64,000 bases of DNA from assembly GCF_003019035.1 (NCBI RefSeq), contig NZ_CP027447.1; one strand, 5' to 3'. Positions 21,664 through 29,184 of this stretch are shown here, one piece after another. The translations under genes and the position numbers were made by a program. The notes beneath the pieces are model-generated. The model saw only the letters and a list, made by a program, of their open reading frames with translations, did no database searches and was not told the DNA's origin. Source of the stretch: Escherichia coli (GTDB taxonomy: Bacteria; Pseudomonadota; Gammaproteobacteria; Enterobacterales; Enterobacteriaceae). Position 1 is the stretch's first letter, and every line of letters begins with the position of its first letter.

Positions 21664-24093
21664 GTGTCGTCGTTGCCCGTTGCTGCCGTCTTACCTGAGT
21701 TACTTGCTGCCCTCGATGGTGCACCGCAGGTGTTATTAAGTGCGCCGACCGGGGCCGGGAAATCAACCTGGCTGCCGCTGCAACTGCTGGCGCATCCCGG
21801 CATTAACGGAAAAATTATCCTGCTGGAGCCGCGTCGTCTGGCGGCGCGTAACGTCGCGCAACGGCTGGCGGAGCTGCTTAACGAAAAGCCAGGCGATACC
21901 GTTGGCTACCGGATGCGTGCGCAAAACTGCGTCGGCCCGAATACCCGCCTGGAAGTGGTTACCGAAGGCGTGCTGACGCGCATGATCCAGCGTGACCCGG
22001 AACTGAGCGGTGTTGGATTGGTGATCCTCGATGAGTTTCATGAGCGCAGTTTGCAGGCGGATTTGGCGTTGGCGCTGTTACTCGATGTGCAACAAGGTCT
22101 GCGTGATGACCTTAAACTGCTGATTATGTCGGCTACGCTGGACAACGACCGCTTGCAGCAAATGCTGCCAGAAGCGCCCGTCATCATCTCAGAAGGGCGC
22201 TCGTTTCCGGTTGAACTCCGTTATTTACCGCTGCCCGCGCATCAGCGTTTTGACGAAGCCGTTGCGGTAGCCACCGCCGAAATGCTGCGTCAGGAAAGCG
22301 GATCATTACTGTTATTTTTACCTGGCGTCGGAGAAATTCAGCGTGTGCAGGAACAACTGGCTTCGCGCATCGGCAGTGATGTGTTGCTCTGCCCGCTGTA
22401 TGGCGCGTTGTCGCTGAACGATCAGCGAAAAGCGATCCTCCCGGCACCGCAAGGGATGCGCAAAGTGGTGCTGGCGACCAATATTGCTGAAACCAGTTTA
22501 ACCATTGAAGGTATTCGTCTGGTGGTGGATTGTGCCCAGGAGAGGGTGGCGCGTTTTGATCCGCGTACAGGGCTTACGCGGTTGATTACTCAACGCGTTA
22601 GTCAGGCGTCGATGACGCAACGTGCCGGGCGTGCCGGGCGTCTGGAGCCGGGTATCTGCCTGCATTTAATCGCCAAAGAACAAGCAGAACGCGCTGCCGC
22701 GCAAAGTGAACCGGAGATCTTACAAAGCGATCTTTCCGGTTTGCTGATGGAATTACTGCAATGGGGATGCAGCGATCCGGCGCAGATGAGCTGGCTGGAT
22801 CAACCGCCAACGGTGAATCTACTGGCCGCGAAACGCCTGTTACGGATGCTGGGGGCGCTGGACGGTGAACGGCTTAGTGCGCAAGGGCAAAAAATGGCAG
22901 CGCTGGGTAACGATCCGCGTTTAGCGGCAATGCTGGTTAGCGCGAAGAACGACGACGAAGCTGCTACCGCGGCAAAAATTGCCGCCATTCTCGAAGAGCC
23001 GCCACGGATGGGCAATAGTGACCTGGGCGTGGCGTTTTCGCGCAATCAACCCGCCTGGCAGCAACGTAGTCAGCAACTGTTAAAACGCTTAAACGTACGC
23101 GGCGGTGAGGCAGACAGTTCGCTTATCGCGCCGCTACTTGCCAGAGCGTATGCCGATCGCATTGCTCGTCGCCGTGGGCAAGATGGACGCTATCAACTGG
23201 CAAACGGCATGGGGGCGATGCTCGATGCCGACGATGCGCTAAGCCGCCACGAATGGTTGATCGCACCGTTATTATTGCAGGGCAGCGCCTCGCCGGATGC
23301 GCGGATTTTACTGGCGCTGCCGGTCGATATTGATGAGTTAGTACAACGCTGCCCGCAGCTGGTACAGCAATCGGACACCGTGGAGTGGGATGACGCGCAA
23401 GGTACGCTGAAAGCCTGGCGTCGGCTGCAAATCGGTCAGTTGATGGTGAAAGTGCAGCCACTGGCGAAACCCTCGGAAGACGAGTTGCATCAGGCGATGC
23501 TTAACGGCATTCGTGATAAAGGTTTAAGCGTGCTCAACTGGACGGCGGAAGCGGAACAGCTACGCTTGCGTTTGTTATGCGCCGCAAAGTGGTTGCCGGA
23601 ATATGACTGGCCAGCGGTTGATGATGAAAGTTTGTTGGCGACGCTGGAAACGTGGCTACTGCCGCATATGACAGGCGTACATTCGCTACGCGGCCTGAAA
23701 TCACTCGATATTTATCAGGCACTGCGTGGATTACTTGATTGGGTAATGCAGCAACGTCTGGATAGTGAATTGCCTGCGCATTACACTGTGCCGACGGGAA
23801 GCCGGATCGCCATTCGTTACCATGAAGATAACCCGCCCGCGCTGGCGGTGAGAATGCAGGAGATGTTTGGTGAGGCCACTAATCCGACTATCGCCCAGGG
23901 GCGCGTACCGTTGGTGCTGGAGTTGCTTTCCCCTGCCCAAAGGCCGCTGCAAATCACGCGTGATTTGAGCGCCTTCTGGAAAGGAGCGTACCGTGAGGTG
24001 CAAAAAGAGATGAAAGGGCGTTATCCCAAACATGTCTGGCCGGACGACCCGGCAAACACCGCACCGACGCGACGAACGAAAAAGTATTCGTGA
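21664..24093 (+). CDS. hrpB: ATP-dependent RNA helicase HrpB (DEAH box)
   Basis: ORF 21619..24093; GTG start at 21664 gives (M)SSLPVAAVLPELLAALDGAPQVLLSAPTGAGKST...; Walker A and DEFHER motif. Confidence 0.93.
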   Translation: MSSLPVAAVLPELLAALDGAPQVLLSAPTGAGKSTWLPLQLLAHPGINGKIILLEPRRLAARNVAQRLAELLNEKPGDTVGYRMRAQNCVGPNTRLEVVTEGVLTRMIQRDPELSGVGLVILDEFHERSLQADLALALLLDVQQGLRDDLKLLIMSATLDNDRLQQMLPEAPVIISEGRSFPVELRYLPLPAHQRFDEAVAVATAEMLRQESGSLLLFLPGVGEIQRVQEQLASRIGSDVLLCPLYGALSLNDQRKAILPAPQGMRKVVLATNIAETSLTIEGIRLVVDCAQERVARFDPRTGLTRLITQRVSQASMTQRAGRAGRLEPGICLHLIAKEQAERAAAQSEPEILQSDLSGLLMELLQWGCSDPAQMSWLDQPPTVNLLAAKRLLRMLGALDGERLSAQGQKMAALGNDPRLAAMLVSAKNDDEAATAAKIAAILEEPPRMGNSDLGVAFSRNQPAWQQRSQQLLKRLNVRGGEADSSLIAPLLARAYADRIARRRGQDGRYQLANGMGAMLDADDALSRHEWLIAPLLLQGSASPDARILLALPVDIDELVQRCPQLVQQSDTVEWDDAQGTLKAWRRLQIGQLMVKVQPLAKPSEDELHQAMLNGIRDKGLSVLNWTAEAEQLRLRLLCAAKWLPEYDWPAVDDESLLATLETWLLPHMTGVHSLRGLKSLDIYQALRGLLDWVMQQRLDSELPAHYTVPTGSRIAIRYHEDNPPALAVRMQEMFGEATNPTIAQGRVPLVLELLSPAQRPLQITRDLSAFWKGAYREVQKEMKGRYPKHVWPDDPANTAPTRRTKKYS

Positions 24094-24186
24094 AGACCAA
24101 AGCAAATTTGAGAGATATCTTCTTCTGTCTTGCAACAGAAGAACAGAAAATCGGGCTTTTGCGCCTGAATATTGCGGAGAAAAAGC

Positions 24187-26721
24187 ATGGCCGGGAATGA
24201 CCGCGAGCCAATTGGACGCAAAGGGAAACCGACGCGTCCGGTCAAACAAAAGGTAAGCCGTCGTCGTTACGAAGATGACGATGATTACGACGATTATGAT
24301 GACTATGAGGATGAAGAACCGATGCCGCGCAAAGGTAAGGGCAAAGGCAAAGGGCGTAAGCCTCGTGGCAAACGCGGCTGGCTATGGCTGCTGCTAAAAC
24401 TGGCTATCGTTTTTGCCGTGCTGATCGCCATTTACGGCGTTTATCTCGATCAAAAAATTCGCAGCCGTATTGATGGCAAGGTCTGGCAATTGCCCGCGGC
24501 AGTTTATGGTCGAATGGTCAACCTTGAGCCAGACATGACCATCAGCAAGAACGAGATGGTGAAGCTGCTGGAGGCGACCCAGTATCGCCAGGTGTCGAAA
24601 ATGACCCGTCCTGGTGAGTTTACCGTACAGGCCAACAGCATTGAGATGATCCGCCGTCCGTTTGATTTCCCGGACAGCAAAGAAGGGCAGGTGCGCGCGC
24701 GTCTGACCTTTGATGGCGATCATCTGGCGACGATCGTCAATATGGAGAACAACCGTCAGTTCGGTTTCTTCCGTCTTGATCCGCGCCTGATCACTATGAT
24801 CTCTTCACCAAACGGTGAGCAGCGTCTGTTTGTGCCGCGCAGTGGTTTCCCGGATTTGCTGGTGGATACTTTGCTGGCGACAGAAGACCGTCATTTCTAC
24901 GAGCATGATGGGATCAGTCTCTACTCAATCGGACGTGCGGTGCTGGCAAACCTGACTGCCGGACGCACGGTGCAGGGGGCGAGTACGCTGACGCAACAGT
25001 TGGTTAAAAACCTGTTCCTCTCCAGCGAGCGTTCTTACTGGCGTAAAGCGAACGAAGCCTACATGGCGCTGATCATGGACGCGCGTTACAGCAAAGACCG
25101 TATTCTTGAGCTGTATATGAACGAGGTGTATCTCGGTCAGAGCGGCGACAACGAAATCCGCGGCTTCCCGCTGGCGAGCTTGTATTACTTTGGTCGCCCG
25201 GTAGAAGAATTGAGCCTCGATCAGCAGGCGCTGTTGGTGGGTATGGTGAAAGGGGCGTCCATCTACAACCCGTGGCGTAACCCGAAACTGGCGCTGGAGC
25301 GACGTAACCTGGTACTGCGTCTGCTGCAACAGCAACAGATTATTGATCAAGAACTCTATGACATGTTGAGTGCACGTCCGCTGGGTGTTCAGCCGCGCGG
25401 TGGGGTGATCTCTCCTCAGCCAGCCTTTATGCAACTGGTGCGTCAGGAGCTGCAGGCGAAATTAGGCGATAAGGTAAAAGATCTCTCCGGCGTGAAGATC
25501 TTCACTACCTTTGACTCGGTGGCCCAGGACGCGGCAGAAAAAGCCGCCGTGGAAGGCATTCCGGCACTGAAAAAACAGCGTAAGTTGAGCGATCTTGAAA
25601 CCGCGATTGTGGTTGTTGACCGCTTTAGCGGTGAAGTTCGTGCGATGGTCGGTGGTTCTGAGCCGCAGTTTGCGGGCTACAACCGTGCGATGCAGGCGCG
25701 TCGTTCGATTGGTTCCCTTGCAAAACCAGCGACTTATCTGACTGCCTTAAGCCAGCCGAAAATCTATCGTTTGAATACGTGGATTGCCGATGCGCCAATC
25801 GCGCTGCGTCAGCCGAATGGCCAGGTCTGGTCACCGCAGAACGATGACCGTCGTTATAGCGAAAGTGGCAGAGTGATGCTGGTGGATGCGTTGACCCGTT
25901 CGATGAACGTGCCGACGGTGAATCTGGGGATGGCGCTGGGGCTGCCTGCGGTTACGGAGACCTGGATTAAACTGGGCGTACCGAAAGATCAGCTGCATCC
26001 GGTTCCGGCGATGCTGCTGGGGGCGTTGAACTTAACGCCAATCGAAGTGGCGCAGGCATTCCAGACTATCGCCAGCGGCGGTAACCGTGCACCGCTTTCT
26101 GCGCTGCGTTCGGTAATTGCGGAAGATGGCAAAGTGCTGTATCAGAGCTTCCCGCAGGCGGAACGCGCGGTTCCGGCGCAGGCGGCGTATCTGACACTAT
26201 GGACCATGCAGCAGGTGGTACAACGTGGTACGGGGCGTCAGCTTGGGGCGAAATACCCGAACCTGCATCTGGCAGGGAAAACAGGAACTACCAACAATAA
26301 CGTAGATACCTGGTTTGCGGGCATTGACGGCAGCACGGTGACCATCACCTGGGTAGGCCGTGATAACAACCAACCGACCAAACTGTATGGAGCCAGCGGG
26401 GCAATGTCGATTTATCAGCGTTATCTGGCTAACCAGACGCCAACACCGCTGAATCTTGTTCCGCCGGAAGATATTGCAGATATGGGCGTGGACTACGACG
26501 GCAACTTTGTTTGCAGCGGTGGTATGCGTGTCTTGCCGGTCTGGACCAGCGATCCGCAATCGCTGTGCCAGCAGAGTGAGATGCAGCAGCAGCCGTCAGG
26601 CAATCCGTTTGATCAGTCTTCTCAGCCGCAGCAACAGCCGCAACAGCAACCTGCTCAGCAAGAGCAGAAAGACAGCGACGGTGTAGCCGGTTGGATCAAG
26701 GATATGTTTGGTAGTAATTAA
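24187..26721 (+). CDS. mrcB: penicillin-binding protein 1B (bifunctional glycosyltransferase/transpeptidase)
   Basis: ORF 24172..26721; start at [14 protein letters not shown] (24187); glycosyltransferase motif EDRHFYEH, transpeptidase SxxK (SLAKP) and KTG; acidic D/Y-rich then KGKGKGKG N-terminal tail. Confidence 0.95.
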
Positions 26722-26883
26722 CGTCTAAGCGTGACATACCGGATGGCGAGTAGCCATCCGGTAAAATAACATCCCACCTAAAGTATTAACCCTTTCTTTT
26801 CATCTGGTTGTTTATTAACCCTTCAGGAACGCTCAGATTGCGTACCGCTTGCGAACCCGCCAGCGTTTCGAATATTATCTTAT

Positions 26884-26905
26884 CTTTATAATAATCATTC
26901 TCGTT
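26884..26905 (+). promoter_or_regulatory. Fur box in fhuA promoter
   Basis: tataataatcattctc (26887..26902) resembles the Fur consensus GATAATGATAATCATTATC, about 40 nt upstream of the fhuA ATG. Confidence 0.55.
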
Positions 26906-26940
26906 TACGTTATCATTCACTTTACATCAGAGATATACCA

Positions 26941-29184
26941 ATGGCGCGTTCCAAAACTGCTCAGCCAAAACACTCACTGCGTAAAATCGCAGTTGTAGTA
27001 GCCACAGCGGTTAGCGGCATGTCTGTTTATGCACAGGCAGCGGTTGAACCGAAAGAAGACACTATCACCGTTACCGCTGCACCTGCGCCGCAAGAAAGCG
27101 CATGGGGGCCAGCTGCAACTATTGCGGCGCGACAGTCCGCTACCGGCACCAAAACAGATACACCGATTCAAAAAGTGCCACAGTCTATTTCTGTTGTGAC
27201 CGCCGAAGAGATGGCGCTGCATCAGCCGAAGTCAGTAAAAGAGGCGCTTAGCTACACGCCGGGTGTCTCTGTTGGTACGCGTGGCGCATCCAACACCTAT
27301 GACCACCTGATCATTCGCGGCTTTGCAGCAGAAGGCCAAAGTCAGAATAACTATCTGAATGGCCTAAAGTTGCAGGGCAACTTCTATAACGATGCGGTCA
27401 TCGACCCGTATATGCTGGAACGTGCTGAAATCATGCGTGGTCCGGTATCCGTGCTGTACGGGAAAAGCAGCCCTGGCGGCCTGTTGAACATGGTCAGCAA
27501 GCGCCCGACTACAGAACCGCTGAAAGAAATTCAGTTTAAAGCCGGTACTGACAGCCTGTTCCAGACTGGTTTTGACTTTAGCGATGCGCTGGATGATGAC
27601 GGCGTTTATTCTTATCGCCTGACCGGTCTTGCGCGTTCTGCCAATGCCCAGCAGAAAGGGTCAGAAGAGCAGCGTTATGCTATTGCACCGGCGTTCACCT
27701 GGCGTCCGGATGATAAAACCAATTTCACCTTCCTTTCTTACTTCCAGAACGAGCCGGAAACTGGTTATTACGGCTGGTTGCCGAAAGAGGGAACCGTTGA
27801 GCCGCTGCCGAACGGTAAGCGTCTGCCGACAGACTTTAACGAAGGGGCGAAGAACAACACCTATTCTCGTAACGAGAAGATGGTCGGCTACAGCTTCGAT
27901 CACGAATTTAACGATACCTTTACTGTGCGTCAGAACCTGCGCTTTGCTGAAAACAAAACCTCGCAAAACAGCGTTTATGGTTACGGCGTCTGCTCCGATC
28001 CGGCGAATGCTTACAGCAAACAGTGTGCGGCATTAGCGCCAGCGGATAAAGGCCATTATCTGGCACGTAAATACGTCGTTGATGATGAGAAGCTGCAAAA
28101 CTTCTCCGTTGATACCCAGTTGCAGAGCAAGTTTGCCACTGGCGATATCGACCACACTCTGCTGACCGGTGTCGACTTTATGCGTATGCGTAATGACATC
28201 AACGCCTGGTTTGGTTACGACGACTCTGTGCCACTGCTCGATCTGTACAATCCGGTGAATACCGATTTCGACTTCAATGCGAAAGACCCGGATAACTCCG
28301 GTCCGTACCGCATTCTGAATAAGCAGAAGCAAACGGGCGTTTATGTTCAGGATCAGGCGCAGTGGGATAAAGTGCTGGTCACCCTGGGCGGTCGTTACGA
28401 CTGGGCAGATCAAGAATCTCTTAACCGCGTAGCGGGAACGACCGATAAACGTGATGACAAACAGTTTACCTGGCGTGGTGGTGTTAACTACCTGTTTGAT
28501 AATGGTGTAACACCATACTTCAGCTATAGCGAATCGTTTGAACCTTCTTCGCAAGTTGGGAAGGATGGTAATATTTTCGCACCGTCTAAAGGTAAGCAGT
28601 ATGAAGTCGGCGTGAAATATGTACCGGAAGATCGTCCAATTGTAGTTACTGGTGCCGTGTATAATCTCACTAAAACCAACAACCTGATGGCGGACCCTGA
28701 GGGTTCCTTCTTCTCGGTTGAAGGTGGCGAGATCCGCGCTCGTGGCGTAGAAATTGAAGCGAAAGCGGCGCTGTCGGCGAGTGTTAACGTAGTCGGTTCT
28801 TATACTTACACCGATGCGGAATACACTACCGATACTACCTACAAAGGAAATACGCCTGCACAGGTGCCAAAACACATGGCTTCGCTGTGGGCTGACTATA
28901 CCTTCTTTGACGGTCCGCTTTCAGGTCTGACGCTGGGCACCGGTGGTCGTTATACTGGCTCCAGCTATGGTGATCCGGCTAACTCCTTTAAAGTGGGAAG
29001 TTATACGGTCGTGGATGCGTTAGTGCGTTATGATCTGGCGCGAGTCGGCATGGCGGGCTCCAACGTGGCGCTGCATGTTAACAACCTGTTCGATCGTGAA
29101 TACGTCGCCAGCTGCTTTAACACTTATGGCTGTTTCTGGGGCGCAGAACGTCAGGTCGTTGCAACCGCAACCTTCCGTTTCTAA
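26941..29184 (+). CDS. fhuA: ferrichrome outer-membrane transporter (TonB-dependent receptor)
   Basis: 747-aa ORF with signal peptide; TonB box DTITVTA; C-terminal aromatic residue (…ATATFRF). Confidence 0.96.
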   Translation: MARSKTAQPKHSLRKIAVVVATAVSGMSVYAQAAVEPKEDTITVTAAPAPQESAWGPAATIAARQSATGTKTDTPIQKVPQSISVVTAEEMALHQPKSVKEALSYTPGVSVGTRGASNTYDHLIIRGFAAEGQSQNNYLNGLKLQGNFYNDAVIDPYMLERAEIMRGPVSVLYGKSSPGGLLNMVSKRPTTEPLKEIQFKAGTDSLFQTGFDFSDALDDDGVYSYRLTGLARSANAQQKGSEEQRYAIAPAFTWRPDDKTNFTFLSYFQNEPETGYYGWLPKEGTVEPLPNGKRLPTDFNEGAKNNTYSRNEKMVGYSFDHEFNDTFTVRQNLRFAENKTSQNSVYGYGVCSDPANAYSKQCAALAPADKGHYLARKYVVDDEKLQNFSVDTQLQSKFATGDIDHTLLTGVDFMRMRNDINAWFGYDDSVPLLDLYNPVNTDFDFNAKDPDNSGPYRILNKQKQTGVYVQDQAQWDKVLVTLGGRYDWADQESLNRVAGTTDKRDDKQFTWRGGVNYLFDNGVTPYFSYSESFEPSSQVGKDGNIFAPSKGKQYEVGVKYVPEDRPIVVTGAVYNLTKTNNLMADPEGSFFSVEGGEIRARGVEIEAKAALSASVNVVGSYTYTDAEYTTDTTYKGNTPAQVPKHMASLWADYTFFDGPLSGLTLGTGGRYTGSSYGDPANSFKVGSYTVVDALVRYDLARVGMAGSNVALHVNNLFDREYVASCFNTYGCFWGAERQVVATATFRF

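Follow-up and report, generated by a model that had tools for sequence, protein, structure and literature searches.

Two in-frame starts in Escherichia coli mrcB: the internal initiation codon of PBP1b, its conservation and its setting

The question raised by this locus is whether the gene coding for PBP1b is translated from a single start codon, or whether an in-frame methionine codon at position 46, situated between an acidic and a basic run ahead of the transmembrane helix, serves as a second start from which a shorter isoform is made.

Identity of the gene and layout of its two tails

The window (the whole stretch of 64,000 nucleotides of E. coli DNA that was analysed) carries on its plus strand an open reading frame of 844 codons, extending from the ATG at 24187-24189 to a stop codon at 26719-26721. 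The translated product scored 1734.8 bits against the NCBIfam PBP1b equivalog NF007061 (cut-off 1120) and 1247.6 bits against TIGR02071 (cut-off 717.75), and contained, in order, the Pfam domains PBP1_TM (residues 1-79), UB2H (113-197), Transgly (209-379) and Transpeptidase (473-714). The expected catalytic residues were found as E233 within ATEDRHF and S510 within SLAK, in a numbering which we take to be that of E. coli PBP1b with Glu233 as the GT residue and Ser510 of the SxxK motif as the TP residue. Upstream, hrpB ends at 24093, and downstream fhuA starts at 26941, the same neighbours as in K-12; a 501-nt query spanning the hrpB-mrcB junction found matches in 5424 of 5426 complete E. coli genomes. 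RefSeq annotation, in identical strains, places mrcB on the same open reading frame with the same start. Relative to K-12 MG1655 the protein shows one substitution, V782I, and the gene 69 nucleotide differences (97.3% nucleotide identity), with none in codons 1-67. The interval 24187-26721 (+) is mrcB (ponB) of E. coli, encoding the 844-residue PBP1b. The features of the coding sequence and of its 5' region are as follows.

24173..24186, plus strand: primary ribosome-binding region, GGAG at -12 to -9 from the alpha start; GCGGAGAAAAAGC lies directly 5' of the ATG
24187..26721, plus strand: mrcB (ponB; PBP1b) coding sequence including the stop codon, assigned from NF007061, the Pfam architecture, E233/S510 and the comparison with K-12
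24187..24189, plus strand: primary start codon of the alpha isoform (844 aa), from the RefSeq CDS start and the extent of the open reading frame
24187..24228, plus strand: N-terminal peptide (N-pep, residues 1-14), alpha only; near-invariant, with reported FtsA binding (PMC13423804)
24229..24270, plus strand: alpha-only basic segment, residues 15-28, from the charge count; conserved across Enterobacteriaceae
24271..24318, plus strand: alpha-only acidic D/E/Y block, E29-E44, from run statistics and a 9-bp array; its codons also hold the internal SD-like element
24307..24311, plus strand: SD-like core GAGGA (-15 to -11) for the internal start, within the Glu41-Asp42 codons and marked by GAG bias
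24322..24324, plus strand: internal in-frame start Met46 of the gamma isoform (799 aa), from the SD core, accessibility, conservation and literature
24331..24378, plus strand: basic juxtamembrane run K49-G64, common to both isoforms, from the translation, charge count and a 6-bp array
about 24379..24447, plus strand: transmembrane helix, approximately W65-L87, from Pfam PBP1_TM (residues 1-79) and the hydrophobic stretch in the translation

The GCGGAGAAAAAGC sequence upstream of the alpha ATG is kept across Enterobacteriaceae, and the N-pep that follows was near-invariant in 80 species loci and here identical to that of K-12, including R6 and P8-I9-G10-R11. The cytoplasmic portion of the protein then alternates sharply in charge, with net values of +8 for residues 1-28, -13 for residues 29-44 and +10 for residues 45-64. 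With Y28 counted, the run composed exclusively of D, E and Y extends to 17 residues, as against a longest run of 8 in 20000 shuffles of the protein, and its expectation over an E. coli-sized proteome is approximately 2e-8. Both runs are repetitive in their DNA: about 4 copies of a 9-bp unit, imperfectly repeated in tandem, encode the acidic one, and about 4.2 tandem copies of a 6-bp unit the KG one. Such arrays agree with the in-frame indels recorded among E. coli strains, some of which lack one Asp and others one KG unit. Across species the acidic block retained its composition (9-16 D/E and 1-4 Y) while varying in length and sequence. The succession of acidic run, basic run and transmembrane helix described in an earlier note, made from the sequence of the window alone, thus stands with the boundaries given above; that note had, however, placed the methionine immediately after the acidic run, and while the in-frame Met46 is indeed present, Pro45 intervenes.

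The same note had described the C-terminus of the protein as low-complexity sequence rich in Q and P. This holds for the greater part of it, residues 792-844 (26560-26718) comprising 16 Q and 5 P among 53 (21/53), but not for the last ~17 residues, which form a near-invariant motif. The two parts can be set out separately.

26560..26667, plus strand: Q/P-rich linker of variable length, from composition and length variation
26671..26718, plus strand: near-invariant extreme C-terminal peptide, from an alignment of ~75 complete Enterobacteriaceae sequences

Between species PBP1b varied in overall length, at 833 to 853 aa, and within E. coli both 841 and 844 aa were recorded. Despite the variable linker, the core SDGVAGWIK(D/E)MFG was essentially identical in the ~75 complete sequences. 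This C-terminal stretch is preceded by a conserved GNPF(D/E)QS motif and ends as SDGVAGWIK(D/E)MFG(S/G)N; no function for the peptide was found in a literature search. The available PDB structures of PBP1b begin at residues 53-58 and end at residue 804, so that the Q/P-rich linker is missing from all of the constructs, a span consistent with both tails being disordered.

Signals at the internal start and their conservation

When the in-frame ATG, GTG and TTG codons internal to mrcB were screened for an SD-like core located at -18 to -8, only 2 of 65 possessed one, and of these only codon 46 precedes the transmembrane helix; it is consequently the only SD-preceded start whose product would be membrane-anchored. 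The distance from the SD core to the AUG of Met46 is 10-11 nt, which is above the usual optimum. The surrounding stretch is purine-rich (67% A+G) and poorly structured, the predicted unpaired probability of the internal start (0.59, the 98th percentile of the coding sequence) being comparable with that of the primary start (0.58) against a mean of 0.41 for the coding sequence. Of 5426 E. coli genomes, 5289 carried an unchanged copy of a 48-nt block around Met46.

Conservation was assessed with one genome per species, giving 80 Enterobacteriaceae loci; the window brought the alignment to 81 sequences. At the position of Met46, 71 of these have ATG and 8 have GTG, Pseudescherichia vulneris (GCG) and Kluyvera cryocrescens (CGT) being the sole species with a non-start codon there. 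As GTG is one mutational step from ATG, its use for all 8 Val codons is weak evidence when taken alone. An SD-like core was present in 78 of the 79 sequences with a start codon, and was missing from both that lack such a codon. Among 61 unique upstream sequences the SD-forming Glu codon, located at codon -5, was GAG in 49 and GAA in 7, whereas the two Glu codons just downstream exhibited the opposite preference (GAG:GAA of 9:38 and 12:34) in a gene with a GAG share of 50% overall. Where codon -5 was GAA, a GAGG(A) core was found at -9 instead in five of the seven unique sequences; the two lacking any core were those of K. cryocrescens, which has no start codon, and Buttiauxella gaviniae, which keeps the ATG. 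Codon identity at identical amino acids was 0.78 around the internal start and 0.63 in the gene body, a modest difference uncorrected for phylogeny. In the Enterobacteriaceae sequences aligned, the start codon and its putative SD core go together, both in being kept and in being lost. Beyond that family, the sequences of two Yersiniaceae, Yersinia pestis and Serratia rubidaea, also presented an ATG preceded by GAGGA(GG), while a Budvicia gene has stop codons upstream and its product opens at once with a gamma-like MARRKVK, the whole extension being absent.

Several other elements considered for the same region were rejected. The single-sequence minimum free energy fold paired CUAUGAGG (24303-24310) with CCUCGUGG (24361-24368), but with a z of -1.16 this was not better than shuffles; the SD-masking helix was absent from an RNAalifold consensus of 39 species (-3.8 kcal/mol, covariation term 0.08), and explicit pair counting revealed no covariation beyond shuffles, the observed values being reached in 209 and 109 of 500. 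A conserved RNA structure sequestering the internal SD is accordingly unsupported by any of the three approaches, and Rfam yielded no matches in 23800-27000 even at E<=1. An open reading frame in the +1 frame (24275-24397), coding for a Met-rich peptide of 40 aa, was open in most species and is not considered to be a gene: the main-frame codons for D, E, Y, K, G and R carry a purine (A or G) as their second base and therefore create no +1-frame stops, and the frame terminates at conserved Leu-Leu-Lys codons. Minus-strand open reading frames overlapping the region, which lie inside strongly conserved coding sequence, were likewise without support.

Published evidence for two isoforms and competing explanations

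The alpha/gamma two-start feature of mrcB is already known. Judging by the references given in PMC13423804, the finding of overlapping alpha and gamma coding (1984-85) is to be traced to Kato 1984, Broome-Smith 1985 and Chalut 2001. In the Ribo-RET study of Meydan et al. (10.1101/520783), sharp and specific peaks were reported for E. coli at internal starts of infB, clpB and mrcB that had been verified before; the 'mcrB' that appears in the text of that paper is a misprint for mrcB/PBP1b, as indicated by the figure legend, which has 'mrcB', and by citation in the same sentence of Broome-Smith 1985, the paper reporting the ponA and ponB sequences. Fijalkowski et al. recorded a Ribo-RET signal at both starts of Salmonella mrcB, separated by a 42-aa extension (PMC11005335). 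At the protein level, bands of 94.2 and 88.9 kDa were observed, and M46L was used to obtain an alpha-only construct (PMC13423804). Taken together, these sources report initiation at the internal start and two isoforms for E. coli K-12 and BL21 and for Salmonella (10.1101/520783, PMC11005335, PMC13423804). Both of the checks that had been proposed for this locus, initiation-site profiling and a western blot for PBP1b isoforms, had thus already been published, the former with a positive outcome at the mrcB internal start (10.1101/520783; for Salmonella PMC11005335) and the latter with both bands present (PMC13423804). The claim that Met46 is the alternative start of a shorter PBP1b is borne out by this published work and by the joint conservation of start and SD described above, and as the relevant experiments are in print, no decisive test of it is left.

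Three other explanations were weighed; all are contradicted by the evidence, and none has support. According to the first, gamma would be translated from a separate, shorter transcript arising at an internal promoter within codons 1-45, which is very improbable. Ribo-RET is admittedly blind to which transcript carries the initiating ribosome, and the promoter scan undertaken here was strict, registering sigma-70 consensus sites only; that scan nevertheless detected neither a sigma-70 promoter nor an intrinsic terminator in 23900-24500, and no promoter-like site was found there on either strand. Moreover, an SD-led and accessible internal start suffices alone, and an internal promoter would alter only the source of the mRNA, with Met46 remaining the start of gamma.

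The second explanation, to which we attach even less weight, regards the shorter protein as a proteolytic product of the full-length form, with Met46 unused for initiation. There is a third form of PBP1b, beta, which is attributed to proteolysis of alpha, and the disordered, charged tails would be protease-sensitive, the PDB constructs omitting residues 1-52. In two species, however, Ribo-RET captured ribosomes in the act of initiating at the internal site, and proteolysis would leave unexplained why SD core and start codon are kept, and disappear, as a pair. The use of M46L as the standard route to alpha only also counts against it, and loss of the ~89 kDa band from the mutant with alpha levels kept has in substance already been reported. 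The least credible of the three, by which Met46 and GAGGA would be chance by-products of an acidic low-complexity tract with no selected function, can draw on GAG-GAT being a natural Glu-Asp codon pair, on evolution of the tract by slippage and on the failure to find a conserved RNA structure, but is opposed by the GAG preference confined to the SD-forming codon (49:7 against 9:38 and 12:34 at the adjacent Glu codons), by relocation of the core when it is lost from -15, by loss of start and SD together in 2/2 species, by retention of a start-type codon in 79/81 sequences amid an otherwise variable linker, and by experimental demonstration of initiation (10.1101/520783; PMC11005335).

Two starts on one message, and comparison with known systems

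The reading preferred here is that a single mrcB mRNA is almost certainly translated from two in-frame starts, the ATG at 24187 giving alpha and the GAGGA-led Met46 giving gamma. Ribosomes starting at 24187, where GGAG lies at -12 to -9, would produce alpha-PBP1b of 844 aa, while those binding GAGGA within the codons of the acidic tract and starting at the ATG at 24322 would produce gamma-PBP1b of 799 aa. Initiation at codon 46, and with it the presence of two isoforms, is expected for the strain analysed, since its codons 1-67 are identical in nucleotide sequence to those of K-12, in which the system operates. Both isoforms would retain the KGKG juxtamembrane run, the transmembrane helix and all of the periplasmic and catalytic domains; alpha alone would possess the 45-residue extension made up of the N-terminal peptide (residues 1-14), the basic block and the acidic D/Y block, so that its FtsA-binding peptide would be carried on a charged tether of ~30 residues.

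The functional consequence of the extension has been addressed recently, when only alpha was found to be enriched and active at the septum, a property which needs the N-terminal peptide and is lost with R6E (PMC13423804, 2026). Prediction, backed by some experimental evidence, places the N-pep in the FtsZ-CTP pocket of FtsA, an interaction for which the authors still call for biochemical and structural validation (PMC13423804). By this mechanism alpha is directed to the septum through its N-terminal peptide, probably by way of FtsA, with gamma staying at the periphery. The meaning of the arrangement has thereby become clearer: at the division site the long isoform strengthens the septum so that it withstands osmotic rupture, and the short isoform is active around the rest of the cell periphery.

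As for the acidic block itself, its position and composition suggest a flexible spacer combined with a purine-rich landing pad for gamma initiation; its role was not addressed in the literature examined, and the word 'acidic' is absent from PMC13423804. A stronger proposal, that the block is more than a passive spacer and acts as an RNA-level landing pad, through protein-level charge fold-back, or both, is speculative and on balance unlikely. At the RNA level, its purine-rich and poorly structured codons could be a landing pad selected to set the alpha:gamma ratio, in which event the amino-acid composition of the acidic tract and the internal start would be co-constrained. At the protein level, the succession of +8, -13 and +10 blocks might allow the acidic segment to fold back on the basic run next to the membrane, and alpha and gamma might then differ in their engagement of anionic lipid or of partners in ways that go beyond FtsA binding.

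The closest known system is the alpha/gamma pair of E. coli K-12, the product of the same gene, which is identical in its Met46, its SD core, both charged blocks (acidic and basic) and the transmembrane helix; K-12 has in its hrpB-mrcB spacer a GC-rich repeat of ~100 bp that is absent here, with no difference in the two-start feature. The long and short MrcB pair of Salmonella Typhimurium shares both architecture and mechanism (PMC11005335). Its alpha extension, at 42 aa against 45 aa here, is shorter owing to a shorter acidic tract, and in the Salmonella enterica loci retrieved the internal start was accordingly codon 43. More distantly, infB (IF2 alpha/beta) and clpB (ClpB95/ClpB80) likewise deploy one mRNA with two in-frame starts to yield an N-truncated isoform, and both were detected by Ribo-RET (10.1101/520783); their proteins are, however, unrelated, and what PBP1b loses by truncation is a disordered cytoplasmic tail used for targeting, not a folded domain. 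The Gram-positive class A PBPs with GpsB-binding tails offer an analogy, drawn in PMC13423804, in that a short cytoplasmic peptide likewise recruits the aPBP to the division machinery, although the partner is GpsB rather than FtsA, the peptides are unrelated and no two-start isoforms have been described. The comparative additions made here, namely joint conservation, joint loss in two species and the Yersiniaceae and Budvicia genes, are small and leave the picture unchanged. Set beside these systems, the two-start site of mrcB serves as a positive control rather than a discovery, and as a textbook example, in bacteria, of two proteins made from one gene by way of an internal start.

Candidate lineages with a single PBP1b start

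Within mrcB (window 24187-26721, + strand), the alpha form of PBP1b starts at 24187 and the gamma form at the internal Met46 (24322-24324). A comparison of 80 Enterobacteriaceae loci, one genome per species, indicated that the codon equivalent to Met46 is not a start codon in only two species, Pseudescherichia vulneris and Kluyvera cryocrescens (GCG and CGT respectively), neither of which carries an SD-like core upstream of that codon. The relevant sites were:

L077 (P. vulneris locus) 3100-3195, site lacking the internal start
L086 (K. cryocrescens locus) 3112-3207, site lacking the internal start

Judged by these sequences, both species may represent natural alpha-only PBP1b lineages. The PBP1b gene of a Budvicia sp. 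MAG (L090 601-700) opens at a gamma-like N-terminus, MARRKVKSRKP..., followed by the TM helix; in-frame stop codons are located just upstream, the N-terminal peptide and the acidic block are both missing entirely, and the gene product looks like a natural gamma-only form.

Variation and identity at the mrcB 5' end

In-frame length polymorphisms were recorded among E. coli strains (loci L003, L004, L005, L011 and L012) at window 24280-24291 and 24331-24354, the variant types being an acidic tract minus one Asp or minus a whole DDY unit, and a KG run minus one unit. These variants fit slippage in 9-bp and 6-bp tandem arrays, and as a consequence of them the internal Met is located, depending on the strain, at codon 43-46.

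Over codons 1-67 (window 24187-24387) no nucleotide difference from the K-12 locus (L091) was detected, against approximately 6 expected in these first 201 nt, the remainder of mrcB exhibiting 69 differences in 2334 nt (about 3%). Stronger constraint on the dual-start region is one possible explanation for this difference-free 5' end; recombination and chance are others.

The mrcB 5' end also contains an overlapping reading frame that is open in most species:

24275-24397, + strand, +1 frame relative to mrcB, Met-rich ORF of 40 codons

It was rejected as a gene, because the main-frame D/E/Y/K/G/R codons are unable to make +1-frame stops, and its openness is thus explained by main-frame codon composition rather than constituting evidence of a gene.

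Sequences flanking mrcB

In K-12 (L002/L091) a GC-rich palindromic repeat of ~100 bp, CTCCCTCTCCCTGTGGGAGAGGGCCGGGGTGAGGGC..., lies directly 3' of the hrpB stop codon, whereas window 24091-24110 is devoid of it; loci L005 and L006 carry a shorter version after hrpB. The stop codon itself, TAA in K-12 versus TGA in the window, was altered by the repeat insertion. The hrpB-mrcB spacer, which forms the mrcB 5' leader, also contains:

24120-24143, inverted repeat TTCTTCTG / CAGAAGAA, 8 bp with an 8-nt loop

This repeat was present in every sampled E. coli strain with a single SNP, located in the loop; it has no T-run, and the terminator scan made no call there. Downstream, mrcB is followed directly by fhuA in the window (intergenic spacer 26722-26940), as in K-12. 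In certain strains whose mrcB 5' end is identical, such as SK1144 (L001 6554-7501), a fimbrial operon is located directly 3' of mrcB.

The C-terminal peptide of PBP1b

Two features were located towards the end of the gene:

~26599-26625, GNPFDQS motif
26671-26718, extreme C-terminal peptide, residues ~829-844

The peptide is essentially unchanged over ~75 Enterobacteriaceae species, the Q/P-rich linker being variable in length. Every PBP1b PDB construct ends at residue 804, short of the peptide, and no function for it was found in the papers examined. Its W-I-x-x-M-F spacing suggests a periplasmic amphipathic helix or tethered docking motif.
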